Positions 38,874 through 55,602 of a stretch of 64,000 bases of DNA are shown here, in pieces. How positions within the stretch are numbered: the first letter of the stretch is position 1; each line of letters begins with the position of its first letter. The stretch comes from an uncultured bacterium. Its GTDB lineage: Bacteria > Poribacteria > WGA-4E > WGA-3G. Below the pieces are notes generated by a model, which saw only the letters and a program-made list of their open reading frames with translations, was not told where the DNA came from and ran no database searches. Position numbers and translations under genes: made by a program. The stretch is from assembly GCA_964523645.1 (NCBI GenBank), contig CAZGAW010000005.1, positions 2,464 through 66,463 on the forward strand, in the 5' to 3' direction.

Positions 38874-38964
38874 AAACGCTCACATAAAAAGTGATGGAAC
38901 ATGCCACTCAATCTAACCGTACATAAAATCCGATCCTGTAGGCTATCCTGGAAAGGAGAAGTTT

Positions 38965-39675: not shown

Positions 39676-39686
39676 GTTGACACCAT

Positions 39687-39719
39687 AGGGCGAGGCGAAA
39701 AAACCTCGCCCTATTTTTA
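39687..39719 (+). terminator. Rho-independent terminator
   Basis: AGGGCGAGG, an 8-nt loop, then CCTCGCCCT, followed by ATTTTTAT. It begins 12 nt after the CBM9-like stop. Confidence 0.8.
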
Positions 39720-39737
39720 TAACCTAATTTGCCACTT

Positions 39738-39794
39738 GTAGCACAAACTTTCCAGTTTGTGCCAGTGAATGCGCAAACTAAAAGTTTACGCTAC
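39738..39794. repeat. REP-like doublet (family 1) in inverted orientation (REPIN-like)
   Basis: gtaGCACAAACTttccAGTTTGTGCc (39738-39763) is followed by GCGCAAACTaaaAGTTTACGCtac (39771-39794). The reverse complement of the first copy is nearly identical to 6386-6412. Confidence 0.65.
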
Positions 39795-39912
39795 GAGACC
39801 TTCGCGGCTCCTGATCGCTTTTCACCGAAAAACGGGGGCTGCATACGCGAAATCTTATAAGTAGCAACTTGCGTTTTTATAATGAAATACCATAAATAGC
39901 ACTGGAGCATCT

Positions 39913-40095
39913 GTGTATTATATCGGAAAAACTTTGGAACTGATGGGTATAGCCTGCTTGGGTGCAGGACTCTATTTAGGTTGTGTTAATCCTTTCGACT
40001 ACAGCGAATCCAAAGCAATGGGCGTTGAAATGGGCTTCCTAACACTCGGTGTTTTGGTTTTTTTTGTTGGCAGACTCATTGAAAAACGCCAATGA
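39913..40095 (+). CDS. Small two-TM membrane protein (60 aa), hypothetical
   Basis: GTG start with GGAG 6 nt upstream. Two hydrophobic segments are present (LELMGIACLGAGLYLGCV and FLTLGVLVFFVG). Confidence 0.4.
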   Translation: MYYIGKTLELMGIACLGAGLYLGCVNPFDYSESKAMGVEMGFLTLGVLVFFVGRLIEKRQ

Positions 40096-40142: not shown

Positions 40143-41003
40143 ATGCAAAACTGTTTAGGTCAATTTTACACCAAAGAAGAAATAGCAAAATTGTGTTGGA
40201 AGCATCTTTCTGACACTCTTTCTCTCATAAATAGAAATATAGATGATGATAATCTATTGTTTGTGGAGCCTTCTGCTGGTACTGGCTCTTTTTTCAAATT
40301 GATGCCATCCCAAAGAAGGTTTGGTATGGATTTAGAACCTAAATATGAAGGTGTAAAAAAACAAGATTTTTTCAAGACTGTTCAGCTTGATTATGACTCT
40401 GACGATATTATAGTTGTTGGTAACCCACCCTTTGGTAAGAGAGGTAATTTAGCCGTATCTTTTTTTAATCACTCAGCCTATTTGGCGAGCACAATAGCAT
40501 TTATAGTCCCTGTTATTTTCCGAAAATTTATGGTTCACAAGAAGTTGGATTCCAGTTTAAAATTTATCAGCAAGCTAGAATTGCCTAGAGATTCGTTTGA
40601 ACTTGCTAATGGAAAACCCTATTCGGTAAATACTGAATTTCAGATATGGACTAAATTAGAATGTTCCTGCGATGACATGAGGCTTAATGAAGCCTTACCT
40701 ATATCTCACAAGGACTTCCAGATGTGGCAATATAACAACACACCTGCCGCTCTAAAAGCCTTTGAGAACGACTTTGATTTTGCTGTGCCTTCTCAAGGTT
40801 GGCAGGACTATTCCCGTAGAGAAACAGATTCAGCAAATTGCGAAAAAAATAAACAATGGATTTTACTAAAAGCTAAGAATCCAATAGTATTGTCTCGCTT
40901 ACTATCTATTGATTACAAGAGTCTGGCACAAAGATGTACTACGGCTGTTCCTGGATTTAGGAAGGGAGATTTAGTAAAGGAGTATAGTGATCGATATGAG
41001 TAG
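40143..41003 (+). CDS. Gamma-class N6-adenine DNA methyltransferase (type II R-M, TaqI/Eco57I-like motif order)
   Basis: 286 aa with motif X-like QFYTKEEIA, motif I VEPSAGTGSFF and motif IV VVGNPPFG. The gene is visibly AT-rich; lines I counted gave about 32-40% GC. Confidence 0.85.
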   Translation: MQNCLGQFYTKEEIAKLCWKHLSDTLSLINRNIDDDNLLFVEPSAGTGSFFKLMPSQRRFGMDLEPKYEGVKKQDFFKTVQLDYDSDDIIVVGNPPFGKRGNLAVSFFNHSAYLASTIAFIVPVIFRKFMVHKKLDSSLKFISKLELPRDSFELANGKPYSVNTEFQIWTKLECSCDDMRLNEALPISHKDFQMWQYNNTPAALKAFENDFDFAVPSQGWQDYSRRETDSANCEKNKQWILLKAKNPIVLSRLLSIDYKSLAQRCTTAVPGFRKGDLVKEYSDRYE

Positions 41004-41664
41004 AATTCAAGAATTATTCTTAGATATGAAGGATAATACTAGAAATTATCTAGTAAGCGACAAAGGGGCAGATTTTGAAAATCAATTTATCATTGGATTG
41101 GAAAGTCAAGGATATGAACAAGCGGATTTCTATGTATTAGGTGATTCCTATAAAAGTATGTTGAAACGAAGCATTGAACAAGATAATGACAGTATAAATA
41201 ACGAAACTGATCTGAATTACCATTATATAAGCCAGCCTTTCGGTTCTCAACGATACCCCGATTTTCTGATATTTGATCAGGATTGCGTTCTGTGTGTAGA
41301 ACTGAAATTTTCAAAGGGTAAAACAGCAAAGCCAGTATGGAATTCAGGACTACCTAGGTTTTACGGTTTATATCTATTCGGATCGTATGGAAGAAATGAT
41401 ATAACATTTTTCAGAGGTTGCGATATATTAAACGATCAGGATAGGGAACTTCTCAAAGGTTTTTTTGATAAAGAACTAGAACGATCGGAATCATTCAATA
41501 GTATGTACATGTCCGATCAAGAATTTGGATTTTCTACATATGCCAGAAAAGCATATCAGCAGACACAAAAACATAATTCTGATGCCATTACTAACTTCTT
41601 TGATAACCCATTAAGATTAAGGTTGGAGAGGTCTGTGTTGAACTATCTCATAAGTATTAGATAA
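40996..41664 (+). CDS. Putative type II restriction endonuclease (PD-(D/E)XK)
   Basis: RYPDFLIFDQDCVLCVELKFSKG fits PD...ExK. The ATG at 40996 overlaps the methyltransferase stop by 8 nt, which suggests translational coupling. AT-rich. Confidence 0.62.
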   Translation: MSRIQELFLDMKDNTRNYLVSDKGADFENQFIIGLESQGYEQADFYVLGDSYKSMLKRSIEQDNDSINNETDLNYHYISQPFGSQRYPDFLIFDQDCVLCVELKFSKGKTAKPVWNSGLPRFYGLYLFGSYGRNDITFFRGCDILNDQDRELLKGFFDKELERSESFNSMYMSDQEFGFSTYARKAYQQTQKHNSDAITNFFDNPLRLRLERSVLNYLISIR

Positions 41665-42371: not shown

Positions 42372-42785
42372 TTAGTCAGCAAGCTGCATAATCGCGATAC
42401 CCTGTTCGCCCGCGACCGAATAGAGCAGCCATTTTTCCCCGTCCTCACAATAGATAGCCGGATCCCGAAGTTCATGCCCGCGTTCCCGATCTAACCCACC
42501 TGTCGACCCTTTAATCGGTAAATCCACACCCTCAAAATCATACTTCGGCGCGATGACCTCTATCGGTGCAGAGGGTTGCCAAGCGTTCCAATCCTCTGTC
42601 AACTGCACGGTGCTTTTTCGGATGCGTTCTGGGCTATCGCCATAGAGTGAGTAATAGACCGTCAAGGTATCCCCTTCAAGGAGGTTCGCCGTGTGGCGCG
42701 GGAAACCGGTGTTGTCTTTTTCCGACTTACGATGAAAAAGCGGTGTGTCCCGTTGAATGAACGATGTTGTCCATTCAGAACTCAT
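42372..42785 (-). pseudogene. Truncated duplicate (C-terminal 137 aa) of the 49219..50106 glycoside-hydrolase-like gene
   Basis: The protein aligns residue for residue with the C-terminal part of the 295-aa protein (EWTTSFIQRDTPLFHRKSEKDN...). Homology stops abruptly at 42778, and the ATG is created at the junction. Confidence 0.8.
42388..42778. repeat. Left copy of a 391-bp direct repeat (partner 49229-49619)
   Basis: Aligned by hand with a constant offset of 6,841 bp and no indels. There are 15 mismatches between 42396 and 42543. Positions 42544-42778 are then identical (235 bp). Confidence 0.9.
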
Positions 42786-42919: not shown

Positions 42920-44047
42920 TTATCGCTGCTTCAACACGCTCCACATCGTCGCCAAACGCAGCTGCGGACTCGACAGACGCGGTCCCGCAGGGACCGCTTC
43001 CACCGGCACACCCCACTTACTCCGCAAAAAATCAATAGACTCCCACACCAAATTCGTGGTATCTACGCTCCGGACGATGCGGGGAGTCTCCATCGCTTCC
43101 AAGCCTTCCAGCGTCGCATTCGTGTCTTTATAGCACGATATCGCAAAATCCACACGCCTGCCCTTCTCCGTAAACAAACGGTAGTCGAAACCCGGTAAGA
43201 CTTGACCGTCCCAGGTCAGGTCCCGCATCGGAAACGGATCGGCTTCGGGACTCTCTATCCGCACGATCCCGTCTTCGTCAACGACTGCGTTCTCTGCTGT
43301 GAGGAGATACTCGCGTCCGTGATTATACGGGACGGCTAACTTGAGTTTCCATCCCGCTAAGTCTGTGAGGCCTTCGGTGGGGTCAACATAGATTTCAACA
43401 GCCGTGGCTGTATAGATACCGGCACGGTTACTTTTATCTATTTCGACTTCAACGGCTTGGACGAAGACCTTGGGTGTCGGACGTCCAACGCCATTGGTTC
43501 TTTGCCATCCGACCGGACACCGGTAAACAACGACTTTTTGAGGTGGAGTTTCGACTTTCGGTGGGGGCGGTGGAGGAGGAGGTGGGGGCGGCGGAGGACC
43601 AACAATAATGGTAAGGGTGTTCTGCGGCTGGCAACCGGAACCTATGCGACCGTCCCAAGCCTGCACTACAAATTGATAAGTGCCTACCGGTATTGAAGAT
43701 CCGTCGGTTTTTACTTCCCATTTAGCAGTTGCCCCAACCTGATCGACACTGAAAGGCATATCGCTATGCCTTTTTTGTACACCATTTATTTGATGCCTGA
43801 TATCGCTTCCAGTGTAGAAATCTGCTGATGCTGAATTGGTAAAGGTGCCGCTCATAGTAAGTGTAATGAGCACCGTATCGTCTCCTACATTGCTGTAAGT
43901 TCTCTGAGTTGTGGATGACGGCGTCAATCGAGCATTACATCCTTGACCTTCTGATACGCGAGTTACCAAGAGACTACACGCCAACAGAACGCATACTGAA
44001 ATCAACAACTTGGGGGTCGTGCAGGATTGACTATAAAACGTTTTCAT
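42920..44047 (-). CDS. Secreted protein: Ig-like N-domain, 13-residue poly-Pro linker and lamin-tail-like (LTD) domain
   Basis: 375 aa with a signal peptide and a PPPPPPPPPPPPP run. The LTD-like pattern is AVEIYVDPTEGLTDLAGWKL. The C-terminus reads RLATMWSVLKQR. Confidence 0.78.
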   Translation of the reverse strand: MKTFYSQSCTTPKLLISVCVLLACSLLVTRVSEGQGCNARLTPSSTTQRTYSNVGDDTVLITLTMSGTFTNSASADFYTGSDIRHQINGVQKRHSDMPFSVDQVGATAKWEVKTDGSSIPVGTYQFVVQAWDGRIGSGCQPQNTLTIIVGPPPPPPPPPPPPPKVETPPQKVVVYRCPVGWQRTNGVGRPTPKVFVQAVEVEIDKSNRAGIYTATAVEIYVDPTEGLTDLAGWKLKLAVPYNHGREYLLTAENAVVDEDGIVRIESPEADPFPMRDLTWDGQVLPGFDYRLFTEKGRRVDFAISCYKDTNATLEGLEAMETPRIVRSVDTTNLVWESIDFLRSKWGVPVEAVPAGPRLSSPQLRLATMWSVLKQR

Positions 44048-44490
44048 AAATAAAGATATTCCTTTCGTATTGACAGACCCAACGCAGCGGCGTGGAGGTC
44101 CCTGACCGAGACTGAACAGAAACAGCCCCTTGGCGGGGTTCCCGTGTCAGGAATCCATGCAAGAGGCGAAGACAGCGGTTGCCCGTGTTTCGGGACGTAG
44201 CGGAAGTCGCAAGCCGCGAGGTCGAGTCTGAAGTGTGTTAGGGGAGAAGTTATACTTAACGTGAAATAAGGGGGGGTAACGGAGGTATCTAACATATCAC
44301 AAACTATCGCAGCCTCGGCGGGATGCCGCAAAGTCATTTCTACATCTGCTTGGATAGTTTCTGCTCGTATCATTGACCGAAATCCGTCTCCCTAAAATGT
44401 TTGAGGTGACAACTTGTGTTAAGTTATAATACGACAAATTTCGTAATTTTTCAAATTAAAATAAAAAGTCTATATGTAACTATAACCTAA

Positions 44491-44655
44491 TAGTCTGTCC
44501 AGTCTAAAATTAGGAGGAACCCCGCTCGTCGTAGGGCAATTCATTGCCCGTTCCTGACCGGCGGACGTGCGATAATGCACTTCGCATTTGGGCGAGTACG
44601 CCGCAAAATCGCACTACTACGAACTAATACCTACAACTTTAAGGTGGACAGACTA
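44491..44655. other. About 165-nt multi-stem structured element (candidate ncRNA or replication origin)
   Basis: The closing stem TAGTCTGTCCA (44491-44501) pairs with TGGACAGACTA (44645-44655), 11 bp. Nested inside are AGGAAC/GTTCCT (44515-20 / 44550-55) and GGGCAAT/ATTGCCC (44534-40 / 44543-49). Further short hairpins follow, and there is no ORF. Confidence 0.35.
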
Positions 44656-44753
44656 CTATAGTGAAATATACAATTATCATAATCTTCAGTGTCAAAACCC
44701 CGTCCTTTAGGGCGGGGATGTAGACGCTGCCTATGTTTGTAGCAAAAAAAGAT

Positions 44754-44782
44754 TTGACTTTTCTATGAAATTGTGGTATAAT
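44754..44782 (+). promoter_or_regulatory. Near-consensus sigma70 promoter for tnpB
   Basis: TTGACT, a 17-nt spacer, then TATAAT, with TGG just upstream of the -10 element. Confidence 0.6.
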
Positions 44783-44871
44783 TCATACACATCGTAGCGG
44801 TGGATTCTACCTCCCGCTTGGGAGTGCCACCGCACCGTTTAGAAGCGGTATTACGGTGTAAAGGAAATACG

Positions 44872-46026
44872 ATGTATACCACAAAATACAAATTTTTTCG
44901 TGCGCCACGCAACCGGCACCTGAAACGAAAGACGTGGATCGCACATACAATATGGAACTACTTTGTAGGTTGGCAACGCACGCGGAATTCTCTTGGATTG
45001 CCGTATCTGTCCTACAAAGAGATGTCGCGAGCATTTACTGTGCTCCGTAACTCGCATCCTGACGTTTTTTCACATTGGCGTAAGTTAGATTCATGGGCAG
45101 CGCGCCAAGTGCTTAAACGTCTGGATCTCGGTTATGATCGGTTCTTTAAGAAAATCGCAAAGCGACCCCCAAAGTTCCGATCGTTTCGTAAGCCATACTC
45201 GTTTACGATGTCTCCTTCTGGATACAAGTTTGCTGCCCCTATTACTGGTAATAAAGGATTCGGCATCTATAATGACCGTGTGACGATTATGGGTAAAGGG
45301 TATAGATTTAATCTGAGCCGTCCTATATTTGGAAAGATCAAAACTGTTACGATCAAAGAAGATGCACTGGGTGATTTCTATATGACTGTCGTTACGAATC
45401 ACATTCAGTCCCATCTCAAGCCAATGACGGGTAACGCTGCTGGGTTTGATATGGGCATCAAAACAATGTTGACGTGTTCCAACGGAAAACAGTATGAATC
45501 GCCTCATTTCTATACAGAATCTATTGATAACGTTAGAACAGCAAATCGTCAACTTTCGACAAAACAGCGTGAAAGCAACAACCGAGAACGTGCGCGACAC
45601 CACCATGCGCGTATGCATCGGAAAGTCCAGAGACAACGCGAAGATCACCATTGGAAACTTGCACTTGAACTTGTGCGTAGGTTTGATATTTTGTTCTTTG
45701 AGACATTGAACCTTGACGGTATGAAACGCCTGTGGGGTCGTAAAGTCTCTGATATTGGATTCTACGCATTCTTGCAGAAAGTCGAGTGGCAAGCGAAAAA
45801 GCGTGGAAAACGCGTTGAATACATCAATCAATGGCAACCGACAACGTCTGTGTGTCATATCTGTAATGCTCGTGTTTCTCTTGAATTGAGTGATAGAACA
45901 TGGACGTGTAAACATTGTAATACTCACCATGACCGCGACATTAACGCGGCTATCAACATTCTTAAGGTTGGGGCATCAACCTTTGGAGTAGAGAACGTTA
46001 GACTTGCTATTGCAAGCAGTTCTTGA
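44872..46026 (+). CDS. tnpB: TnpB (IS605 OrfB-family RNA-guided nuclease), apparently intact
   Basis: RuvC-like motifs: AAGFDMGIK (Asp), ILFFETLNL (Glu) and HHDRDINAAINI (Asp). The zinc finger is CHICN...CKHCN. The start is set at MYTTKYKFF (ATG 44872, with AAGGA upstream) rather than the GTG at 44800. Confidence 0.9.
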   Translation: MYTTKYKFFRAPRNRHLKRKTWIAHTIWNYFVGWQRTRNSLGLPYLSYKEMSRAFTVLRNSHPDVFSHWRKLDSWAARQVLKRLDLGYDRFFKKIAKRPPKFRSFRKPYSFTMSPSGYKFAAPITGNKGFGIYNDRVTIMGKGYRFNLSRPIFGKIKTVTIKEDALGDFYMTVVTNHIQSHLKPMTGNAAGFDMGIKTMLTCSNGKQYESPHFYTESIDNVRTANRQLSTKQRESNNRERARHHHARMHRKVQRQREDHHWKLALELVRRFDILFFETLNLDGMKRLWGRKVSDIGFYAFLQKVEWQAKKRGKRVEYINQWQPTTSVCHICNARVSLELSDRTWTCKHCNTHHDRDINAAINILKVGASTFGVENVRLAIASSS

Positions 46027-46085
46027 GGATACCAGAATCTCCCCCGCTTTAGCGGGGAGAGTATGTCAAGTATACACTTTAAAAT

Positions 46086-46114
46086 TTGACCAAAAATGAG
46101 AATTTTGATAATAT
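46086..46114 (+). promoter_or_regulatory. Sigma70-like promoter for the 983-aa gene
   Basis: TTGACC, a 17-nt spacer, then TAATAT, sited about 125 nt upstream of the ATG at 46239. Confidence 0.5.
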
Positions 46115-46238
46115 ACACTAATGAATAGAGAAACGCGGTGCCTCCGGGGTATAAGCCCCAGCGGGGCAACATCTGTGTAGAAACTTGGCAAAACGGTATC
46201 CAGAATTTACGCAATTCTGTCTTTAAGGAAACATATTG

Positions 46239-49190
46239 ATGACAACAGATGTCTTGGAAAATCTTATTGCACGCTGCCACCAACGACACGAGCACCCCCT
46301 TAAGCAACGGCAGTCGATCGTAGCACCGCTGCTTCACAAAGGGTTTCCTTACCATTTCACAGTCTATTGTGCACACAGATACCCTGTGATGCTTCAAGAC
46401 GTGGAGGCGGCGGATATTTCCTTTATGCCGATAGGACGGGTCCCTGGCAACGATCGACCCCCGCGCTCTTTTGGGGGTGAACGGTTCCTGAAACGCCAAC
46501 AGGCGGCAGACTGGGAAGCGCTTCGATGGCATAAGTCATGGGGGATTCAAGTGTATACGGGGGCCCCCTCAGCACGCGAGGGTGCGCCATGGCATGACAT
46601 CGACTTTAAATATGAGGCTATCTGTGCCGCACCGGATGCTGTTCTTGCTTGTGTTCAAGCACTCGTTGATGCCGTTGCGAACCCGTTGCTAACGCTGTCA
46701 AAGTCGGGTGGACTCCGCTTTTCTTGCAGAATACCCGGGTACCTACACCCGAACACCCAACAAGCCCGGCTGTATGTGCATAAGCACACACCGACATCGG
46801 AGGATCCGCACCAGCACGACACGTATCTTGAAATTGTAGGTGAGCAGGGATATAGTTGCTGGGATGCACGCTATGAAATTCTGCTTGGAGATCTGTTAGA
46901 TCCGCCTGTGATTTCCAAAGCAGTGCTTTTCCCGCCTCTTGATGCGTTTCGCGCTGCACTTCACAAACCTATGCCCCAAAGCGTCCAATACGAAGCGCGC
47001 ACCCTCGACGCGCCATATTCTCTCGGTTCGGGTAAACTTGACCTCGCGAAAGAGGCATTTTTTAAGCGTGGGTTTTCTTATCTCAGACAAGCCGATGGAA
47101 TTCACTATTGGAGCCGGCGAGAGGGTGAGACTAGCAATACAGCGGTATCGTTGTGGGAGAGCGAAGGTAACGTATGGATATGTGCATCCACGTCTGATAC
47201 GGGGTTGCCTGTGGAGGCAACGCTTATCACAGATGTTTGGAACGATACCGGCATCCTGCCACCGATTCCCGCGACGGGGCTGCCGATAGACGATGAAGTA
47301 CTTGCCATTCGGGAAGGGAAACTCAGTCCGCTGGCAATAAAACGTCCTAAGCCGGTGTTACACAAATTGGAACACGTCGAAAAGATGGATGAAACACGCG
47401 AAGACATTTGGGTTCAGCTGGAGCGTGCGCTCGATAGACGGGTGAGTGCGCTTGAATTCATTCCCGATGCGGATTCAGAGAAAGACGGTGAGGTCGGATC
47501 CCTTCTGAGTAATAATCGCGCAATATGTTTAAACGTGCCAGATGCTGAACTCGCTGCAGGCATGGAACAATTTTTTCAAAAGCAAGATGTGGGATCAGTA
47601 GCACAAATACTCCGGGATCACCGATTGTTTTTGGACCCTCAATACGCAAAAACAGCGGAACAAATTCTCCAACGGCGCGATGGAACACAGCAACTGTGTA
47701 TCATCAATGTAGAGAGAGAGGATCAACTGTTTCTGGAATGCGAACTCTCAAAAACCACATTGGAGAGATGGGTTGTCAACTGGGAAGGGAGTGCCCTCGG
47801 ATACTTTGCCACAGCCCTCCTGAATGCCACTGAAATCAGAGATAAATCTCACGCCAATGCTATCAGACGCCTTCGGACAGTCATACAGACGTTTGAATGG
47901 CTTGCAGAAGAGATCATCCAACAGATGTGTCACGTTGACGCGGCGACTGTTGAAAACATGCAAGAGTTTCCAACGGTTTCTTCGGATCCAAACTGGACGT
48001 TTTGGCATCAACTCAAACGTTTCTTCGGACATTACACCAGAGATGCTGATGCTCCGATGCACTGGGAGAACGAAGTGCTACGCTTCTGGGTGCCGCCGGT
48101 GCTGCATCCGAGCGTCAGACACCTTTTGGTCACCTCACCCGCGCTCTACGACGAACATGTACGGCGAGCGTTCTTGGACGAGGAAACTGAGAGCCTTCCG
48201 TCCGAACCCGTGGCGTGGGCTCCTGGAAATTGCGTTTTTCAGATTCGCACCGATGTATATCCACGGAAGACAATTTTAGACCTCTACAACACCTGGGACG
48301 TTTTTGGGATATCTGAAACCGGGCAGCACATTTTTTCCAGGATCCAAGCTGAAATCGAAAGGGATCCGAGTGTTAAGCATGGCATTATAAGCCACGTTCA
48401 CACAATTAGACGTTGTTTGGATAATATAAAAAAAAATAAGAATGTCCGTTTTCTGGCGAGCTTCCGAAAGAGAAAAGGATTGGAATCGAGCTTCCGAAAG
48501 AGAGACAGATTGGCAACCGTTTTCCAAGAAGCGCAGGTCCTCTGGATCGTTGGCATGCCGGAGATGGGACCCCGCGCCATTTTGGAGCGCACGCAGATCT
48601 TGTTTGGAAACGACGAAGAACCGCTTTCTTATGAAATGGAACTTGAAACATGCCGTTACAAAGACGAACGCGTCCAGAGCGTTTATGAAAAGGATATCGT
48701 CCATATATTCACAGAGGCTATAGCATTAGCGCAACTCAACCGTTTGGAAAATAAGAAAGTTATGTTGATTACAGGGTTGCGAATTCCTGATATCACCGAC
48801 AGACCCGAAACGCTCCTTTTTGACTGGGCAGACTTTGATATTGCTGGTGAGTTAGACAAACTTCCCGAGGCAATCGCGACACGCCAACGTTTTGAAACCG
48901 AACGCGACAATCTGACGGTTGAATCCAGCAGAAGAGAGGTAGAGCGAGTTCTCGGCTGCCCCCCAAGGCAGGCGAACCGAGTGTTACAACGGATGAGAGG
49001 GGGGAAGGTACGTGTCACTTTCCGCGAGCAAATTCTCACACTGCTCGCCGAGGGTGAGAAAACAACACCGGAATTCGCGGCGGCGATTCAAGGACACCCA
49101 AAAGCCATAAATACAGAACTCACACGCCTTGTGGGGATGGGTGTAATTGTAAAGGTGCGACGGGGGGTTTATAGACTCCCAGAGGATTAG
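46239..49190 (+). CDS. Large orphan protein: tentative AEP primase-polymerase-like N-terminus, unknown central region and C-terminal winged-helix DNA-binding domain
   Basis: 983 aa counted from the ATG. N-terminal motifs resemble prim-pol signatures: SWGIQVYTG...WHDIDFK (DxD), TLSKSGGLRFSCRIPG (sGGxH-like, but Arg replaces His) and YLEIVGEQGYSCW. I found no Walker A. The C-terminus reads ILTLLAEGEKTTPEFAAAIQGHPKAINTELTRLVGMGVIVKVRRGVYRL (wHTH-like). Confidence 0.8.
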   Translation: MTTDVLENLIARCHQRHEHPLKQRQSIVAPLLHKGFPYHFTVYCAHRYPVMLQDVEAADISFMPIGRVPGNDRPPRSFGGERFLKRQQAADWEALRWHKSWGIQVYTGAPSAREGAPWHDIDFKYEAICAAPDAVLACVQALVDAVANPLLTLSKSGGLRFSCRIPGYLHPNTQQARLYVHKHTPTSEDPHQHDTYLEIVGEQGYSCWDARYEILLGDLLDPPVISKAVLFPPLDAFRAALHKPMPQSVQYEARTLDAPYSLGSGKLDLAKEAFFKRGFSYLRQADGIHYWSRREGETSNTAVSLWESEGNVWICASTSDTGLPVEATLITDVWNDTGILPPIPATGLPIDDEVLAIREGKLSPLAIKRPKPVLHKLEHVEKMDETREDIWVQLERALDRRVSALEFIPDADSEKDGEVGSLLSNNRAICLNVPDAELAAGMEQFFQKQDVGSVAQILRDHRLFLDPQYAKTAEQILQRRDGTQQLCIINVEREDQLFLECELSKTTLERWVVNWEGSALGYFATALLNATEIRDKSHANAIRRLRTVIQTFEWLAEEIIQQMCHVDAATVENMQEFPTVSSDPNWTFWHQLKRFFGHYTRDADAPMHWENEVLRFWVPPVLHPSVRHLLVTSPALYDEHVRRAFLDEETESLPSEPVAWAPGNCVFQIRTDVYPRKTILDLYNTWDVFGISETGQHIFSRIQAEIERDPSVKHGIISHVHTIRRCLDNIKKNKNVRFLASFRKRKGLESSFRKRDRLATVFQEAQVLWIVGMPEMGPRAILERTQILFGNDEEPLSYEMELETCRYKDERVQSVYEKDIVHIFTEAIALAQLNRLENKKVMLITGLRIPDITDRPETLLFDWADFDIAGELDKLPEAIATRQRFETERDNLTVESSRREVERVLGCPPRQANRVLQRMRGGKVRVTFREQILTLLAEGEKTTPEFAAAIQGHPKAINTELTRLVGMGVIVKVRRGVYRLPED

Positions 49191-49218
49191 CACTGAAGCA
49201 TTCTGACATGGGTTCCCA

Positions 49219-50106
49219 TCATAGGCGAATAATCGCAATACCTTGTTCGCCTGCGACCGAATAGAGCAGCCACGTTTCTCCCGCCTCACAATAGATAGCC
49301 GGATCCCGAAGTTCATGCACGCGTTCCCGATCTAACCCACCTGTCGACGGTCTAATCGGTAAATCCGAACCCTCAAAATCATAATTCGGCGCGATGACCT
49401 CTATCGGTGCAGAGGGTTGCCAAGCGTTCCAATCCTCTGTCAACTGCACGGTGCTTTTTCGGATGCGTTCTGGGCTATCGCCATAGAGTGAGTAATAGAC
49501 CGTCAAGGTATCCCCTTCAAGGAGGTTCGCCGTGTGGCGCGGGAAACCGGTGTTGTCTTTTTCCGACTTACGATGAAAAAGCGGTGTGTCCCGTTGAATG
49601 AACGATGTTGTCCATTCAGGGGTTTGCCCCCGACTTAACCAACCGTGGTGCGTCGCATAGGGGAAACCCTTCCACCAAAAAACACGATAATAGGGTCCCA
49701 TCTGTTTATTCAGTGTATCCGAAGCGGTATAGTTCAGGCCATCGGTCGAAGTTGCCCAACAGGTTGCCTGCCCGCCACCGTAGTTTCCATGAAAATACAT
49801 AAAGAACCGTCGATTTTCCGCATCTATGTGGACATCCGGTGAAGCGATGTGGTCGCATCCCCGAAATACAGTATTGGCACGATGCAAGGCACCCGGGCGA
49901 TAGATAGTGTAAGGTCCCTCGATTGCCTCGGCATACGCCAATCGGATATAGGCACCACGATGATGGGCAAAGTAGAGGTAGTATCTCCCCAACGGATTTT
50001 CGACCCATTCCGGTACGCGAACGAGTGAAGGTCCGTTGATATTGGAGAAACCGTGTTCCCTATCAAGTTCAGACATTTCAGGATGGATTAGCAGCGTTCG
50101 TTCCAT
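49219..50106 (-). CDS. Five-bladed beta-propeller glycoside-hydrolase-like protein (GH43/32 clan, tentative)
   Basis: 295 aa containing GPSLVRVPEW, YYLYFAHH and ELRDPAIY (an RDP-type motif). This is the full-length copy of the fragment at 42372..42785. Confidence 0.65.
   Translation of the reverse strand: MERTLLIHPEMSELDREHGFSNINGPSLVRVPEWVENPLGRYYLYFAHHRGAYIRLAYAEAIEGPYTIYRPGALHRANTVFRGCDHIASPDVHIDAENRRFFMYFHGNYGGGQATCWATSTDGLNYTASDTLNKQMGPYYRVFWWKGFPYATHHGWLSRGQTPEWTTSFIQRDTPLFHRKSEKDNTGFPRHTANLLEGDTLTVYYSLYGDSPERIRKSTVQLTEDWNAWQPSAPIEVIAPNYDFEGSDLPIRPSTGGLDRERVHELRDPAIYCEAGETWLLYSVAGEQGIAIIRL
49229..49619. repeat. Right copy of the 391-bp direct repeat
   Basis: See 42388-42778. The identical 64-aa shadow ORFs at 42566..42760 and 49407..49601 in the track confirm the identity. 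Confidence 0.9.
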
Positions 50107-50114
50107 ATTTCTCC

Positions 50115-50936
50115 TTAATCGTGGTTCTGGAACCGATAGACTTCCTGCGCGGTTTCAGACATATCGCTCCATATCTTTTCTGGAATCCGTGCACCGAAGA
50201 TTCCGGGGGCATCGGGGGCATGGTGAAGCCGTCGGAAATAGACGAGTGCAAGCATGTGCCTCACTGTAGATTTTGTCCGATTCGGCATGGCTCGGTGCCA
50301 ACACCGCATGTCACGGACGACAACAGAACCCGCAGGCATCTCTAACTGAAATGAAGGGTAGTTTGCCGCACGTTCAGGCTCACAGACGTTGTACGGAGAA
50401 TTTCGCACTGCCTCGTCATCCACGATGAGATGCGAACCGGGCCATACTTCAGTCGCACCGTTTTCCACTGTAAAATCGACAAGCGGAATGTTAACAACAA
50501 TCGTTGAAACGGGTAGCGCGAACGGGAGTTCAGGGAAAAGTTGCCCCGAATCTCGATGAATCCACTGGATTTCGTTTCCGGGACGCGTTGAGTTACAACC
50601 GTAAGGCAAATAGGCAAAGATCTTTTCGCCCATTGCGGCTTTCATAATCGACATAGCGAAAGGGTTATCAATGATACGCGGGTCCATGAACGGCATCTTT
50701 AGCATTGGATTTTCGCCGTTCTGTCGCTCCTCTTCATTCTGAAGTACATTTTCCATAGCAACGTTGAGTTCCGCTATCCAATCGCGTGGAAGAACGCTCT
50801 CAATGACGACCAACCCCGCCTCGCGTAACAAACGTTCGCCAGTCTCAACGCTTTCAGGTGTGAGTTTATTTTCAGCGCGTTCCTGATCGGAGATTTCCAG
50901 TATCGGAATGTTTACGGTTCGTCCTGTGGGTTCCAT
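50115..50936 (-). CDS. Phytanoyl-CoA dioxygenase (PhyH) family Fe(II)/2-oxoglutarate oxygenase
   Basis: 273 aa with WIHRDSG (HxD) and the distal His in CWHRAMPNRT. Confidence 0.82.
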   Translation of the reverse strand: MEPTGRTVNIPILEISDQERAENKLTPESVETGERLLREAGLVVIESVLPRDWIAELNVAMENVLQNEEERQNGENPMLKMPFMDPRIIDNPFAMSIMKAAMGEKIFAYLPYGCNSTRPGNEIQWIHRDSGQLFPELPFALPVSTIVVNIPLVDFTVENGATEVWPGSHLIVDDEAVRNSPYNVCEPERAANYPSFQLEMPAGSVVVRDMRCWHRAMPNRTKSTVRHMLALVYFRRLHHAPDAPGIFGARIPEKIWSDMSETAQEVYRFQNHD

Positions 50937-50939
50937 CTG

Positions 50940-51713
50940 CTAAGCCCGCCTTTCTGGTTGGTTTTGAGGAAGTTTTAATTCTGCTCGAACTGCTTGGCGA
51001 ACCCGTTCACATACGCCCGTTGCGTGGTGTGCGTCCTCGGTGGTTGCTGATTTACCCGGATATCGAAAGTCCACTGCATGTTGAGAAACTGTCGAAAAAT
51101 CAGACTGCCAAACGTGCCAATCGGGAATAACAGGTAAAATTAAAGCTAACAATTCTTTCAAATCATGCGTCTTGGCAAATTGAAGGTCAGTCTCTTGGAG
51201 GCATGCTTTTAGGTATTTTTCTATATACTGTTGCGCATGAAAACAGATAAAATCGAAATTCGGTGATGCCGCCTGCTGATGCAATTCTATGGCAGCATAA
51301 TCGCCTTCAGCTTTCCGTACCCATTCAAGTGTTAGTGAATTGATAGTCTCGTTCTCTGTCTCCAAGATTTTCATGGAGAGATTGTCAGGACCATAAAGCA
51401 CTTGCCCTTTTTCAGTGATTTCTCGGAGAAACCAATCGTTGTATGAAGTTCGATAAGCGATTTCCTCTGGCGAGCGAACCAGCAAATCCATGCTGAAACG
51501 GCGCGGGATACGTTGAACAATCTCTACAGCTTGACGACGTGTCTCTGATTCCGGAATCTCCATGACGACCAATAAATCAACGTCTGAATCTTCAGTCGGC
51601 ATGCCGTACGCATAGGATCCAAAAAGAATGACCTGTAGGGGCGCAAATTCACGGACGATGTCGTTACAAGTTGCTTGGATGTCCTTTCGAGAAATCATCT
51701 GCCTACCTCCCAT
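50940..51713 (-). CDS. Fused nucleotidyltransferase (MNT-like) + HEPN domain protein
   Basis: The N-terminus reads ILFGSYAYGMPTEDSDVDLLVV (GS...DxD). The C-terminus carries HEPN-like KTHDLKELL and VDFRYPG. It ends 3 nt upstream of the PhyH gene. Confidence 0.8.
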   Translation of the reverse strand: MGGRQMISRKDIQATCNDIVREFAPLQVILFGSYAYGMPTEDSDVDLLVVMEIPESETRRQAVEIVQRIPRRFSMDLLVRSPEEIAYRTSYNDWFLREITEKGQVLYGPDNLSMKILETENETINSLTLEWVRKAEGDYAAIELHQQAASPNFDFICFHAQQYIEKYLKACLQETDLQFAKTHDLKELLALILPVIPDWHVWQSDFSTVSQHAVDFRYPGKSATTEDAHHATGVCERVRQAVRAELKLPQNQPERRA

Positions 51714-51883
51714 TTTTCAAAGTATACTATTAAAAGGGCAATTAGTCAAGTTCATTACTACAGCAAGTGAAGAAGGAATCAGAAGAAGAAAAAATTGTTG
51801 TTTTCTCCTGCTAATTTGTATAGAATAAACTACATCCTATCGGCATCAGTTTCAGAACAGCATTTACAAGCAAGGAGCAAATA

Positions 51884-52672
51884 ATGACACCTGAAGTCGC
51901 TTTACAAAAACGGGAGCAAATGATTGAAGAGGGTTTCTGCGTTGTTGATGATGTCCTAAGTGAAGAGTTCTTGCAGGAGCTCCGAGACGAGTCGGAACGG
52001 CTTATCGCAGGACATGTAGAACCCGAGGACGTTGTCTATCAAGGACAGCACGTCAACGTCCGCGGTGAAGATAACCCGCATATTCAAAAACTGTTGGAAT
52101 GGCAACCCTCACGCGAGGCTTTAGAACAGATTGGGTTCGGAGATTTTGTATCATCTGGCGGGATCATTATCCTAACGAAAGAATCCGGGGGACCCCCACT
52201 CTATTGGCATCAAGATTGGATGCGTTGGAACGATCCATTGAGCTGCGCGCCGTGGCCCCAAACGATTTTCCTGAATTACTATCTCACCGATACAAACCGA
52301 GAGAATGGTTGTTTAAAGGTCATTCCGGGGACACACCGCAAGCGAATCGACCTGCACGACATACTCGTACCTGCGCATGAACAAGGCGCACGCTTCATTG
52401 ATGAAGACCATCCTACCATGTTCAGCGATCACCCGGATCAGATAGATGTCTGTGCAAAAGCGGGATCGTTGGTAATGGCAGACGCTCGCATCTTACACTC
52501 CGCTCACAGAAACTTCACTGATGTTCGACGCACACTCATTCTCGCGTGGCATAGCCGTCCGAACACCGTACCAGACTATTGGGATCGCGAAATCCCGGAA
52601 ATCATTGTGAATCGCGACGAAGACGCAAATTATCCGATGTCTCGTATTCCTGGTGATTTATTACAGCCATAA
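51884..52672 (+). CDS. PhyH-family Fe(II)/2OG oxygenase
   Basis: 262 aa with LYWHQDW (HxD) and ILHSAHRN. AAGGAG lies upstream. Confidence 0.85.
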   Translation: MTPEVALQKREQMIEEGFCVVDDVLSEEFLQELRDESERLIAGHVEPEDVVYQGQHVNVRGEDNPHIQKLLEWQPSREALEQIGFGDFVSSGGIIILTKESGGPPLYWHQDWMRWNDPLSCAPWPQTIFLNYYLTDTNRENGCLKVIPGTHRKRIDLHDILVPAHEQGARFIDEDHPTMFSDHPDQIDVCAKAGSLVMADARILHSAHRNFTDVRRTLILAWHSRPNTVPDYWDREIPEIIVNRDEDANYPMSRIPGDLLQP

Positions 52673-52705
52673 CACAGCGCAGTGCCTTGAGGATATGGAG
52701 GAAAA

Positions 52706-53464
52706 ATGATTCCTATTGATCTCACGAATAAAGTGGCGGTAATTACCGGCGGTTCAGGCGCATTAGGTCGCGTTATGGTAAGGACTCTGGCGGAAGCAGG
52801 TGCAGATATCGCAATCTGCTACTACCAGGACCAAGAAACGGCGCGCCTTCTACAGGATGAAATCATTGCAAAGGGCGTAAAGGTAACCGCTGTACAGGCA
52901 GATGTCACGAATCAGGATTCAATAAACGCGATGCGTGACATCGTTTCAGCGGAATTGGGTGCCGCAGACATCATCGTTAATAATGCTGTAATCCAGTATA
53001 CCTGGACCTCTGTTTTGGAACAATCCGCTGAAGACTACGAAAGCCAGTTCGAGTCATGTGTCCTGCATAATGTATACATGGCACAAGCCTTCGTTCCAGC
53101 GATGATCGAATCAGGATGGGGACGCGTTGTCAGCATTAATACGGAATGTTCAATGCAAAACTTCGCGAATCAGAGTGCTTATACATCGGGCAAGCGAGGT
53201 ATGGACGGCGTTTTACGGGTACTCGCAAAAGAGGTTGGTGCGCACGGTGTTACTGTCAATCAAGTCGCGCCAGGGTGGACAATCAGCGAAAAAAGTGAAT
53301 CAAGAGCGTCCGACGAACATTATTGGCGTAAAGTGCCGATGCAACGCCGAGGGACTGCTCAAGAAATCGCTAATACTGTGCTCTTCCTTGCATCGGACCT
53401 CTCGAGTTATATCACGGGTGTGTATATCCCCGTGTGCGGCGGGAATGTAATGCCCACGATTTGA
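52706..53464 (+). CDS. SDR-family oxidoreductase (FabG-like)
   Basis: 252 aa with TGGSGALG, NNAV and YTSGK (YxxxK). Confidence 0.9.
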   Translation: MIPIDLTNKVAVITGGSGALGRVMVRTLAEAGADIAICYYQDQETARLLQDEIIAKGVKVTAVQADVTNQDSINAMRDIVSAELGAADIIVNNAVIQYTWTSVLEQSAEDYESQFESCVLHNVYMAQAFVPAMIESGWGRVVSINTECSMQNFANQSAYTSGKRGMDGVLRVLAKEVGAHGVTVNQVAPGWTISEKSESRASDEHYWRKVPMQRRGTAQEIANTVLFLASDLSSYITGVYIPVCGGNVMPTI

Positions 53465-53496
53465 TAAATCTGTTCCGAATATGTTTTGAGGGAAAT

Positions 53497-54333
53497 ATGG
53501 AACGACACAAAATTGCGTATAAAGTACTGAACGACCACAATCCGAATGCGGAAACAGGGCAACGCTGGGAAATAGAGGTGCATGCCACTGCCGAAGAGTT
53601 AGAAGCACTTGCTGAGAGCGGTTATCTTGTGCGCGAAGGCCTCTTTCAAGGTGAGGCACTCCAAAAATTGCAAGACGCTCTTGATCGTTTGGAAGAACGA
53701 GAATGGCAAAAGCGAGACAATGCAATTGCTGGAAAGCGAGGTTGGGGCTTTATTCCGCGTCATTTGATGGATAAAGATGACGCATTCTTAGAACTCCTAA
53801 AGTTCCAACCGACCTTATCCATTGCACGGGCGATGATGGGACCCCTTGTGCGGCTGCGTGGTTTGAGTGCTCGTATCTCGTATCCTGGCGATGATCGAGA
53901 GCAGCAAACTCCATGGCACCAGCACCTACGAGTGGTTTCCAACCCATTGCCGCCGTGGTTTTCACGTCCGCACTGTATGGATTGTCTCATCTACCTTGAC
54001 GATCTGAACGAAGACACCGGCGCAGTCGCAGTTGTTCCGGGGTCACACGATTGGTTGGACAAGGCAACGCCGAACACTTACGGACCCGTTAAAGGTGAAA
54101 TTGAGTTAAGAGTGAAAGCCGGTGGGGGTGTCCTCATCCACGGCAACCTCTGGCACCGAGGTTTACCAACGCTTAACGCTAAACGACGGATGTTAATTTT
54201 AAGTTATACGCCGACATGGCTACGGAAATCCCCACACGGTGGCGCACAACCTGAAGATGGGTTAACGCACGCCTACCTTAAAGAGGCGGATATGGAAGAG
54301 CGGATGCTATTGGGTGTGGGTGGATATTCCTAA
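53497..54333 (+). CDS. PhyH-family oxygenase paralog with an atypical HxH motif
   Basis: The start is set at MERHKIAYK (GAGGGA upstream). At 53914-53925 the sequence reads WHQH where the paralogs read WHQD or HRD. The distal His lies in NLWHRGLP. Confidence 0.8.
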   Translation: MERHKIAYKVLNDHNPNAETGQRWEIEVHATAEELEALAESGYLVREGLFQGEALQKLQDALDRLEEREWQKRDNAIAGKRGWGFIPRHLMDKDDAFLELLKFQPTLSIARAMMGPLVRLRGLSARISYPGDDREQQTPWHQHLRVVSNPLPPWFSRPHCMDCLIYLDDLNEDTGAVAVVPGSHDWLDKATPNTYGPVKGEIELRVKAGGGVLIHGNLWHRGLPTLNAKRRMLILSYTPTWLRKSPHGGAQPEDGLTHAYLKEADMEERMLLGVGGYS

Positions 54334-54418
54334 ATTGTACATAAAGCACAGAAACGCATATACAGGGTCTGATAGGAGACTATAAAAACTGATAATTCTT
54401 GTATTTTTATGGTAAGCC

Positions 54419-54755
54419 TTGTATACTGCAATCAGGTTTTTGAGTCGTTTCTCAAAGGATATCAAATCGGTGAAGGGTCAGGTCGCGGAAGGCATGGAGT
54501 TCCCTGGTGTCGCAACAAGTTACATTTCCGTGCGGGAACACCAGTATGTTGATCCGATTAAAAAGATTAGTTTCTCGGCATGGGTTAAGGTAGACCAGAG
54601 AGGAATGATTGCGTCCTGGGATCGGAGTGAATTTTTCCGTTTTGCCGACTGAGAAAGAGATTGAACACCTTGCCAGCGGTCCCGAGAACCCGTTTGCAGT
54701 AGATCCCCAAGGCAAGTTGAGTATCACGTGGGGCGATATTAAAGACATGAGATAA
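54419..54755 (+). pseudogene. Degenerate remnant of a LamG-domain exoprotein gene (frameshifted and internally deleted)
   Basis: The TTG-start ORF carries a LamG-like piece (MEFPGVATSYISV...ISFSAWVKVD) and stops at 54652. The +1 frame then reads TEKEIEHLASGPENPFAVDPQGKLSITWGDIKDMR*, which carries the same C-terminal motif seen in two other exoproteins here. Confidence 0.35.
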
Positions 54756-54810: not shown

Positions 54811-55602
54811 TTAAGCACTTGATCCTGCAATCGCTTCCTGAACACCGGGCCATTCTTTCCAGATATCGGTGTAAGCATCATAACCGTTTTGCTCACAATC
54901 AACGTGCCGCAGCCTAAAAATAACAGCGTAGCGGATATCTGATGCCGCGTTCGGTGCCGCAGTATGAACGATCTGGTGGTGTGTCAGGACGACATCCCCC
55001 GCTTTACCGATGATCTGCTTCGGTCCTTCAGGTAGTTCCGGTCTCGGCATCCCATCTGCCAATATTTCATGCCCTTCCTTCTTGAAGTAATCGGCGAAGA
55101 AACTATGTGATTTGGGCCAAACGGTGAAGTTTCCACTATACGGTTCTGGAACATCAGCGAGATAAATCACAGCGAGTGCGGTAAATCCACGTCGATATAC
55201 GCCTTTCGCCATACCATTTTTACCGCTCCCTAACCCGTCAAGGTGCCCGCTCGGTTCATTTGGATCTACGTGCAACGGACCCGGGAAACGCAGTGCAATC
55301 TGTCCTGAACCCGGAATTTGAACGTTTCCTTCACCCATCAACGATTCCGACAGTTGGAGAATAGGCGTTTTATTGAAGAGATTAACAATTGCAGGCGCGT
55401 TACGAATTTCGTCGCAGTAGGATTGCGCTCTGTACCGCTCTAAGTCGCCTTCGTTCATTCCGACAGTACCGATGGAGTGATTAATCTCGTGTCGCGCCGC
55501 GTCTACCATCAATTGTGGTACAACACCAGGGACAGAAATATAGCCGTTTTCATAGAATTCTAACTTTTGTTTGTTCGTAAGCATACCGTTCTTGCCTCCC
55601 AT
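54811..55602 (-). CDS. PhyH-family Fe(II)/2OG oxygenase
   Basis: 263 aa with GHLDGLG (HxD) and the distal His in QIVHTAAPN. Confidence 0.8.
   Translation of the reverse strand: MGGKNGMLTNKQKLEFYENGYISVPGVVPQLMVDAARHEINHSIGTVGMNEGDLERYRAQSYCDEIRNAPAIVNLFNKTPILQLSESLMGEGNVQIPGSGQIALRFPGPLHVDPNEPSGHLDGLGSGKNGMAKGVYRRGFTALAVIYLADVPEPYSGNFTVWPKSHSFFADYFKKEGHEILADGMPRPELPEGPKQIIGKAGDVVLTHHQIVHTAAPNAASDIRYAVIFRLRHVDCEQNGYDAYTDIWKEWPGVQEAIAGSSA

Follow-up and report, generated by a model that had tools for sequence, protein, structure and literature searches.

A multi-copy protein of Poribacteria that joins a predicted primase-polymerase domain to a decayed XPD/DinG/YoaA-like helicase core

The window analysed herein is a stretch of 64,000 nucleotides from an uncultured bacterium of the Poribacteria (GenBank assembly GCA_964523645.1, contig CAZGAW010000005.1). 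An uninterrupted gene for a protein of 983 amino acids (aa) was found within this window (Table 1). A ribosome-binding site, AAGGA, precedes the ATG at 46239; the listing of open reading frames (ORFs) instead starts the gene at the in-frame TTG codon at 46236. The promoter block TTGACC-17-TAATAT upstream of the gene aligns in the homologous loci L001-L003 and in the consensus of 84 upstream regions of paralogs (genome loci carry L numbers and protein relatives carry P numbers below). The 983-aa protein was found to have four parts. These are an archaeo-eukaryotic primase (AEP) domain of the primase-polymerase (PrimPol) type, a linker domain with an invariant motif, a superfamily 2 (SF2) helicase core of the XPD/DinG/YoaA type, and a C-terminal helix-turn-helix (HTH) with a winged helix (wHTH). 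When the whole protein was compared with Pfam, NCBIfam, PHROGs and PADLOC, and via phmmer with the Protein Data Bank (PDB), nothing beyond a weak C-terminal wHTH was detected. A scan of positions 44000-50500 against Rfam gave no match. The full-length AlphaFold2 model, built with 46 close homologs, had a predicted local distance difference test (pLDDT) value of 43.8 and is usable at the C-terminus only.

The N-terminal domain (aa 1-262) was modelled by AlphaFold2 with 30 diverse N-domains from an exhaustive homolog search. The resulting model had a pLDDT of 92.4 and a predicted template modelling score (pTM) of 0.88. When this model was compared with the PDB via Foldseek, the first match was the prim-pol of pRN1 ORF904 (1ro0/1rni; E 7e-4, probability 1.00, TM-score 0.46/0.56). 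The next matches were NrS-1 PrimPol, further pRN1 entries, the CRISPR-associated Prim-Pol (CAPP), LigD polymerase domains, and RepB', and the top 19 PDB matches were AEPs without exception. Similarly, 42 matches at E<=1e-3 were obtained against predicted viral structures (best E 8e-9, TM-score 0.55), and the named ones were overwhelmingly primase-polymerases of phages or giant viruses. On the basis of this model, the N-terminus is placed in the AEP superfamily as a PrimPol type, and primase or polymerase activity is predicted for it.

A preliminary description of the gene, written from the sequence alone, had proposed a diverged prim-pol N-terminus. The confident AEP fold, with pRN1 ORF904 as the first match, agrees with that proposal, and the relationship is visible at fold level only, as the sequence libraries miss it. 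No match to the Pfam families Prim-Pol (PF09250) or BT4734-like_N (PF08800) was found at E<=10, either for the 983-aa protein or for the 30 diverse N-domains. The hhalign comparison of the N-domain with the BT4734-like alignment was not significant (probability 0.25%). A nucleotidyltransferase fold of the Pol-beta type was considered from a weak match to the LinB nucleotidyltransferase (E 0.46, profile of the 30 N-domains against PDB sequences), and it was dropped when the fold search gave only AEPs.

The sequence stretches quoted in the preliminary description are all present and lie on the expected strands of the AEP model: WGIQVYTG...WHDIDFK with D120 and D122, SKSGGLRF with R160, and YLEIVGEQGY with E198. 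Motif I has the AEP pattern hhhDhD/E, and L197-E198 has the pattern hD/E of motif III, with W-D209-A-R211 after it. The canonical sxH of motif II is absent, and S156-G-G-L-R160 carries an Arg in its place. A His is found at this position in the distant relative P0168 (SKSGGQHFYF). Arg or Lys at the motif II position has been reported in the DR0530-like AEP family (PMC5862659). The Arg is therefore read as a variant and not as an exclusion from the AEPs. The conservation of these residues was measured in an alignment of 97 family copies. D120 is conserved in 92/92 copies, R160 in 95/95, E198 in 94/96, D209 in 96/96, and R211 in 95/96. Position 122 is more variable: of 92 copies, 61 have Asp and 13 have Glu (74/92 together), and the other 18 have neither. 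The same N-domain, at 35% identity, is joined to DUF3987 in P0259 and there has a replication context, as the P0259 gene sits in a prophage-like region with RuvC, thymidylate kinase (Tmk), and an integrase. A PriCT-DUF3987 protein has been shown experimentally to be the 5'-3' helicase partner of a PrimPol (PMC11724360).

The central part of the protein had been described as matching nothing. Relatives of the protein have an intact helicase core in this part, to which the window sequence is homologous, and the class of the core was determined from them. A profile was built from 23 relatives and aligned via hhalign with E. coli YoaA (91% probability, E 1e-6, 160 columns), running from motif I through four cysteines to motif II. 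The alignment with DinG reached 73% probability over the Cys cluster and motif II; the controls HrpB and RhlE reached 10% and 21%. The spacing between motifs II and III is about 195 residues, as expected of XPD-type helicases with their Arch insertion but not of the DEAH/RHA type. A DEAH/RHA-like helicase had been considered from weak Prp43 and HrpB matches near 'MSATLD', and it was overruled by the stronger YoaA/DinG alignment and the 195-aa spacing. The order of helicase domain 1 (HD1), which is motif I, a four-Cys iron-sulfur (Fe-S) module, and motif II, is present in the live relatives, namely those with intact helicase motifs, and the window protein is homologous to them.

In the window protein itself, the Walker A motif, the DExH motif, the motif VI arginines, and the four Fe-S cysteines are absent. 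GxxxxGK[ST] was found nowhere in the 983 residues, as the preliminary description had stated. The loss is widespread in the family: a Gly at Walker A position 414 remains in 11 of about 94 copies, and an Asp at Walker B position 490 in 8/97. The Cys module of the relatives is 91 aa long with the pattern C-x6-C-x14-C-x2-C-x5-C, and its cysteines line up with the Fe-S cluster region of YoaA and DinG. It is retained in 46/97 copies. The window protein has also lost a second insert, which in relatives is about 76 aa long and lies between motifs II and III. By homology, the centre is an SF2 helicase of the XPD/DinG/YoaA type that is without motifs I, II, III and VI and without the Cys module.

The linker between the two enzymatic domains contains a small domain (aa 263-345), and relatives have a CxxC element or PriCT_2 at the same position. 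This small domain may be a remnant of the zinc-ribbon or PriCT-type module that follows the primase domain in relatives. The motif REGKLSPLAIKRP beyond it is the best conserved stretch of the family, with S363, P364 and R369 in 97/97 copies. Its linker has a pLDDT below 30 in the full-length model, which is of low confidence, and it is possibly disordered. Distant relatives with live helicases also retain REGKLSPLAIKRP. The motif is probably a docking site for some partner.

The C-terminal region carries two DNA-binding modules. The winged helix over about 60 aa that was claimed in the preliminary description is supported by a helix-helix-helix-strand-strand topology at a pLDDT of about 77-88 and by a Pfam match to AbiEi_4 at residues 955-981 (E 6.5e-5; 23.4 bits, under the 25-bit cutoff). 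Weak HTH_5 and ArsR-type HTH matches were also obtained at the C-terminus via Pfam, and PADLOC gave AbiEi at 1e-3. The C-terminal regions of relatives match many HTH and wHTH families, among them HTH_23, HTH_38, and Sigma70_r4. An AbiE type IV toxin-antitoxin system was considered and rejected. No AbiEii partner is present, and the neighbours are tnpB and a 295-aa ORF without a Pfam match. Unlike the N-terminal domain of an AbiEi antitoxin, the AbiEi_4-like wHTH ends a 983-aa protein.

Table 1 Positions in the window of the gene, its promoter-like site, and the domains and motifs of the 983-aa protein.
Feature	Position	Strand	Basis
Promoter-like site, TTGACC, 17 nt, TAATAT with TG extension	46086..46114	+	Consensus scan
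Coding sequence of the 983-aa protein, stop included	46239..49190	+	ORF reading
Predicted AEP/PrimPol catalytic domain, aa 1-262	46239..47024	+	AlphaFold2 and Foldseek
AEP motif I, aa 116-123 APWHDIDF, D120 and D122	46584..46607	+	Strand 116-123 of model
AEP motif II, aa 154-164 SKSGGLRFSCR, Arg160 replacing the usual His	46698..46730	+	Start of strand 159-164
AEP motif III and next Arg, aa 195-213 TYLEIVGEQGYSCWDARYE, E198, D209, R211	46821..46877	+	Strands 193-200 and 205-209
Small helix and beta-sheet domain, aa 263-345	47025..47273	+	Full-length model, pLDDT 56-78 (model otherwise poor)
Linear motif REGKLSPLAIKRP, aa 358-370	47310..47348	+	Conservation across 97 copies
Degenerate XPD/DinG/YoaA-like SF2 helicase core, about aa 385-860	47391..48818	+	Homology to relatives with intact motifs
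Motif I (Walker A) remnant PDADSEKD, ADTGTGKT in relatives	47463..47486	+	Alignment
Deletion scar, 13 aa replacing the 91-aa Cys module	47583..47624	+	Alignment with long paralogs
Motif II (Walker B) remnant CIINVE, hhhDE in relatives	47697..47714	+	Alignment
Motif III remnant VTSPAL, MSATL in relatives	48129..48146	+	Alignment
Motif VI remnant FTEAIALAQLNRL (window EAIALAQLNR), QAIGRARLVR in relatives	48708..48746	+	Alignment
First HTH, about aa 894-919	48918..48995	+	Helices 894-905 and 909-919 in model
Winged HTH, aa 926-983	49014..49187	+	Pfam and model

The preliminary description had regarded the protein as an orphan. This does not hold, as at least 1,325 homologs at E<=1e-3 were found by a word-seeded search, 497 clusters at 50% identity by an exhaustive profile search, and 326 relatives in a scan of one genome per species. 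The best 120 homologs share 62-85% identity, and every named one is from Candidatus Poribacteria. The genome loci were analysed for the best 80 of the 326 matches, and 79/79 of the best loci are Candidatus Poribacteria. Single chromosomes hold at least four copies, for example OZ242349.1, OZ246979.1, OX639992.1, and OZ220722.1. The reading frame appears interrupted in 3/96 family ORFs of other genome loci (L022, L043, and L049), and a few more are cut by contig ends. Two length classes are seen, of about 960-1010 aa and about 1130-1180 aa. The protein thus represents an unnamed multi-copy family that has so far been seen in sponge-symbiont Poribacteria only.

Many relatives found by the exhaustive search share residues 350-1000 but carry another N-terminus. 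When 23 of these were examined, the alternative N-terminus matched Pfam BT4734-like_N in 7/23 (E down to 2.6e-27), and PriCT_2 was found in 5/23. Both domains precede the same helicase-HTH body in P0196 and P0236, which indicates that this body takes interchangeable AEP heads. Copies with intact motifs I and II are few and are the long members of tandem pairs. Such pairs were observed at L037, L038, L040, L041 and L042 (also L055-L057) and are conserved across several complete Poribacteria genomes. Each pair begins with the long paralog, in which AEKGAGKS, CIIDE and the Cys module are present. A short motor-dead paralog comes next and then, 25-41 bp downstream, a convergent gene for a 614-aa SNF2-like helicase. 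The live relatives P0236 and P0245 share one contig with an integrase, ParA, a ribbon-helix-helix (RHH) protein, and a methyltransferase, and this contig looks like a mobile element. A search of the viral contig collection yielded no relatives of the family. Because relatives with intact helicases occur on mobile-element-like contigs, the most likely ancestor of the family is a primase-helicase that initiated the replication of mobile DNA.

Selection on the gene was analysed via the ratio of nonsynonymous to synonymous substitution rates (dN/dS). The value is 0.20-0.28 for the whole gene and 0.14-0.33 per domain, the dead helicase included (0.21-0.33). The AEP domain has the lowest value in most comparisons (0.15-0.24). 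A dN/dS of 0.14-0.33 in every domain indicates that the gene is maintained by selection. The small number of interrupted family ORFs and the conserved promoter likewise speak for a gene that still functions. The flanking genes have a dN/dS of about 0.04-0.1, and the 983-aa gene evolves 3-5 times faster at the protein level. The synonymous divergence (dS) of the gene also disagrees with that of its flanks. Between L067 and L070, the flank dS is 0.13-0.22 and the gene dS is 0.47; between L070 and L074, the flank dS is 0.42-0.82 and the gene dS is 0.23. The window copy differs from its positional counterparts at a dS of about 0.68, whereas copies at other loci are closer to it (dS about 0.4). This disagreement between gene and flank divergence indicates that alleles swap between loci and lineages.

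Paralogous loci are homologous from about 170 bp upstream of the ATG to the stop codon of the gene, and not beyond. Inverted terminal repeats were not detected, and with these limits of homology a discrete mobile element with terminal repeats was rejected. At the level of the whole locus, L070 (OZ244804.1) matches window positions 38943-40095, 46218-49193, and 49206-54748, and L067, L074, L076, L084 and L086 have downstream genes in common with the window. The position of the gene is therefore syntenic in seven genomes, the window counted. Other paralogs form additional synteny groups, and one of them adjoins a 569-aa ORF that reads by eye as arginyl-tRNA synthetase.

The window DNA from 40096 to about 46064 has no counterpart in L070 and lies upstream of the conserved promoter of the gene. 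It contains a type II DNA methyltransferase (40143-41003; PADLOC MTase_II, 6.5e-49), unannotated ORFs, and tnpB (44800-46026). A 225-aa ORF at 40987-41664 overlaps the methyltransferase gene and is a possible restriction enzyme, and the DNA of this pair has a GC content of 0.36. The segment looks like a variable or defence-type island beside the gene. The 983-aa gene had been called the largest gene of the insertion. It is probably not part of the insertion, because the gene and all DNA downstream are syntenic with L070 and five other genomes, and the variable DNA is upstream.

A direct repeat of 393 bp is also present (42386-42778 and 49227-49619). Its last 290 bp are 100% identical, and its first 100 bp are about 90% identical. 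The repeat corresponds to the C-terminal 131 codons of the minus-strand ORF 49219-50106, which is duplicated as the truncated ORF 42372-42785. Between the two copies lies a segment of 6.45 kb, which comprises the 983-aa gene, tnpB, and the ORFs 42920-44047 and 44044-44373. The repeat suggests that the locus was rearranged very recently by unequal or Campbell-type recombination, and it casts some doubt on the chromosomal, non-element status of the gene.

The neighbourhood survey showed no systematic link to tnpB, which the preliminary description had put forward as a possible companion. Only about 6 of the best 80 genome loci have a tnpB within 5 kb, and its distance and orientation vary. It was observed directly upstream and co-oriented in the window (44800-46026, gap 212 bp) and in L091 (1588-2856, gap 43 bp). 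The two tnpB products share 26% aa identity and are unrelated, and in L091 the family promoter is replaced. The upstream position of tnpB in both could be due to chance, or the AT-rich DNA upstream of the gene could be a hot spot for insertion. A small circular contig, also raised in the preliminary description, was rejected, as L091 (6.2 kb) shows no terminal overlap. A perfect GC-rich hairpin at 46040-46058 (CTCCCCGC-TTTA-GCGGGGAG) was observed between the tnpB stop and the conserved promoter block. It may be the right end or the guide-RNA scaffold of an element of the IS200/605 type.

Downstream, four to five PhyH (phytanoyl-CoA dioxygenase) genes and a short-chain dehydrogenase gene were observed at 50115-54333 and 54811-55602, and their synteny is conserved across Poribacteria genomes. 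A fused nucleotidyltransferase (NTase) and HEPN gene lies at 50940-51713 on the minus strand, 1.7 kb from the 983-aa gene and on the opposite strand to it (Pfam NTP_transf_2 1.9e-10, HEPN 4.3e-20). It is absent from the otherwise collinear L070 and is thus a separate small insertion among the PhyH-family genes.

The protein was then compared with known systems. pRN1 ORF904 is the best structural match of the N-domain and has the order primase-polymerase, NTPase, and C-terminal winged helix. It has a superfamily 3 (SF3) helicase with a P-loop, a motif II His, and a plasmid location, whereas the window protein has a dead XPD/DinG-like SF2 NTPase, a motif II Arg, and a chromosomal, syntenic, multi-copy gene. 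The analogy with this replicase drawn in the preliminary description is therefore apt for the order of primase, helicase and winged helix in the wider family, and fails for the helicase, which is XPD/DinG/YoaA-like SF2 and motor-dead. The E. coli protein IEE resembles the window protein in architecture only, as an AEP joined to an SF2 helicase-like domain. The helicase-like domain of IEE is needed for end synapsis and strand displacement and not for unwinding, and the ATPase-dead mutant K451A still does both (PMC9943667). By analogy, IEE is the closest functional precedent for a PrimPol with a non-motor helicase scaffold. IEE keeps seven helicase motifs and ATPase activity, and it has a RadD-like helicase without an Fe-S module and no C-terminal wHTH, whereas the window protein is without the ATPase motifs.

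The live relatives share with the XPD/DinG/YoaA helicases (Rad3 family) the HD1 and a gap of about 195 residues between motifs II and III, as expected with an Arch insertion. The helicases known from this family act in repair or CRISPR systems as stand-alone proteins with no primase attached, and the window protein is without their catalytic motifs and Cys module. CasDinG is reported to have a vestigial Fe-S domain, which is a precedent for the loss of this domain (PMC10450177). Proteins with BT4734-like_N and PriCT-2 are linked to the family by P0196 and P0236; however, the AEP domain of the window protein belongs to a different family. The DR0530-like AEP family and the PrimPol-PV1 supergroup, compared by their published description, likewise depart from the motif II His. 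A conserved downstream Arg ('motif IV') has been described in these AEPs at a spacing comparable to R211, and some All3500 members are joined to remote SF2-like helicases (Kazlauskas et al. 2018, PMC5862659). Most of these families are reported inside integrated mobile elements, whereas the window gene is at a syntenic chromosomal position. The individual components of the 983-aa protein are of known kinds. The AEP sequence family, its fusion to an XPD-type Fe-S helicase, and the motor-dead, multiplied chromosomal form are undescribed in the libraries and literature searched.

The explanation that we favour, with moderate confidence, is that the 983-aa protein derives from the replicase of a mobile element, has been kept on the chromosome, and acts as an ATP-independent, DNA-anchored primase-polymerase. 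The protein would no longer unwind DNA. The C-terminal HTH and wHTH, together with the two RecA-like lobes of the dead helicase, would hold it on DNA without ATP. The PrimPol domain would retain the metal ligands D120, D122 and E198 and the nucleotide-binding Arg160 and Arg211, and at the bound site it would make primers, or extend and fill DNA ends. A purely structural protein is disfavoured because the polymerase pocket is near-invariant. The biological role is a matter of speculation: the protein may repair DNA or help the cell to tolerate damage, or it may interfere with related mobile elements. Its rapid evolution with recombination, and the genes around it, speak somewhat for a role related to conflict. 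Several observations weigh against the favoured explanation. For the window protein's own centre, a RecA-like fold is deduced from homology only, as the full-length model reached a pLDDT of no more than 43.8, and the helicase class was assigned from hhalign alignments to single E. coli sequences over HD1 alone. The 3-5-fold excess of dN/dS over the flanking genes fits partial relaxation. The exchange of alleles, and the restriction-modification, HEPN-NTase and tnpB genes nearby, are a hint of a role in conflict instead of repair. Some paralogs may be catalytically dead, because position 122 is neither Asp nor Glu in 18/92 copies, and the active site could be less constrained than assumed.

Both of the enzymatic domains may instead be inactive, and the protein may be a DNA-binding pseudoenzyme, such as a transcription factor or a decoy on the origins of related plasmids or phages. 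Such a decoy would confer incompatibility-like immunity against mobile elements of its own ancestry. The two C-terminal DNA-binding modules, the dead helicase and the substitution of D122 in 20% of copies are consistent with this, as are the fast protein evolution relative to the neighbours and the exchanged alleles, which are expected of conflict genes, and the restriction-modification, HEPN-NTase and tnpB genes in the window region. However, D120, S156-G-G, R160, E198, D209 and R211 are near-invariant in 97 diverged paralogs, most comparisons place the lowest dN/dS in the AEP domain, and the weak wHTH is the only match to a known defence system that PADLOC gave. A pseudoenzyme is considered unlikely. 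A role as a non-catalytic partner or regulator is considered quite unlikely. Under it, the dead copies would assemble with, or titrate, one live long paralog per genome that has Walker A and B and the Cys module. Other helicase and primase systems offer a parallel, in that inactive subunits assist active ones. The tandem pairs of live and dead copies in several genomes argue for such a role, and the presence of REGKLSPLAIKRP in both live and dead copies suggests a shared partner. Against it, the 64 kb of the window contain no second copy, the dead copies are mostly scattered, and XPD/DinG-type helicases are usually monomeric.

The preliminary description had raised the possibility of a replicase of a small integrative or plasmid element. 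In its most concrete form, the protein would be the working Rep of a small integrated or plasmid-like element, and the repeat-bracketed 6.45-kb segment with two ORFs, tnpB and the 983-aa gene would be that element. The order of primase, helicase and winged helix is indeed that of pRN1-type replicases, relatives occur on contigs with integrase and ParA, many homologs lie on short contigs, and the 393-bp direct repeat is the pattern left by insertion of a circle of the Campbell type. A working replicase is nevertheless very unlikely, because the protein is motor-dead, with the ATPase motifs all gone and the Fe-S module deleted, because its position is syntenic, because several paralogs occur per genome, and because there is no systematic tnpB link. 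Six other genomes share the synteny of the gene together with its promoter and the genes that follow it. The segment is without an integrase, partition or mobilisation gene, and the gene GC of 0.49-0.50 is inside the window range of 0.36-0.51. L091, which has the same order of tnpB and gene, matches the window at the DNA level over the gene alone and lacks a terminal overlap, and the viral contig collection yielded no relatives.

The favoured explanation, a motor-dead and DNA-anchored primase-polymerase, bears on how such enzymes are viewed. Bacterial AEP primase-polymerases are mostly regarded as mobile-element replicases, and a few have been recruited to repair or defence (LigD, IEE, AgaPP, CAPP, and PPRT). 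The present family adds an AEP sequence family that current profile libraries miss. It is also a clear natural example in which the motor was dismantled, through four motifs and the Fe-S module, while the polymerase pocket stayed near-invariant in about 100 selected paralogs. It offers a testable case for helicase folds as passive DNA clamps of primase-polymerases.

A more far-reaching possibility, to which we give little weight, is a new immunity or genome-maintenance system of at least four syntenic paralogs, each an ATP-independent, sequence-anchored primase-polymerase, whose alleles are swapped like those of conflict genes. If this were true, the proteins might prime or block replication at the origins of related plasmids and phages, or patch the breaks made by the abundant TnpB and insertion sequence (IS) elements. 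A whole phylum would then have destroyed the motor of a mobile-element replicase, yet retained the protein and multiplied it, and the ancestral fusion of an AEP with an XPD-like iron-sulfur helicase would be a previously undescribed type of replicase. For the uncultivated sponge-symbiont phylum itself, the analysis assigns a fold and a likely ancestry to more than 1,000 'hypothetical proteins'.

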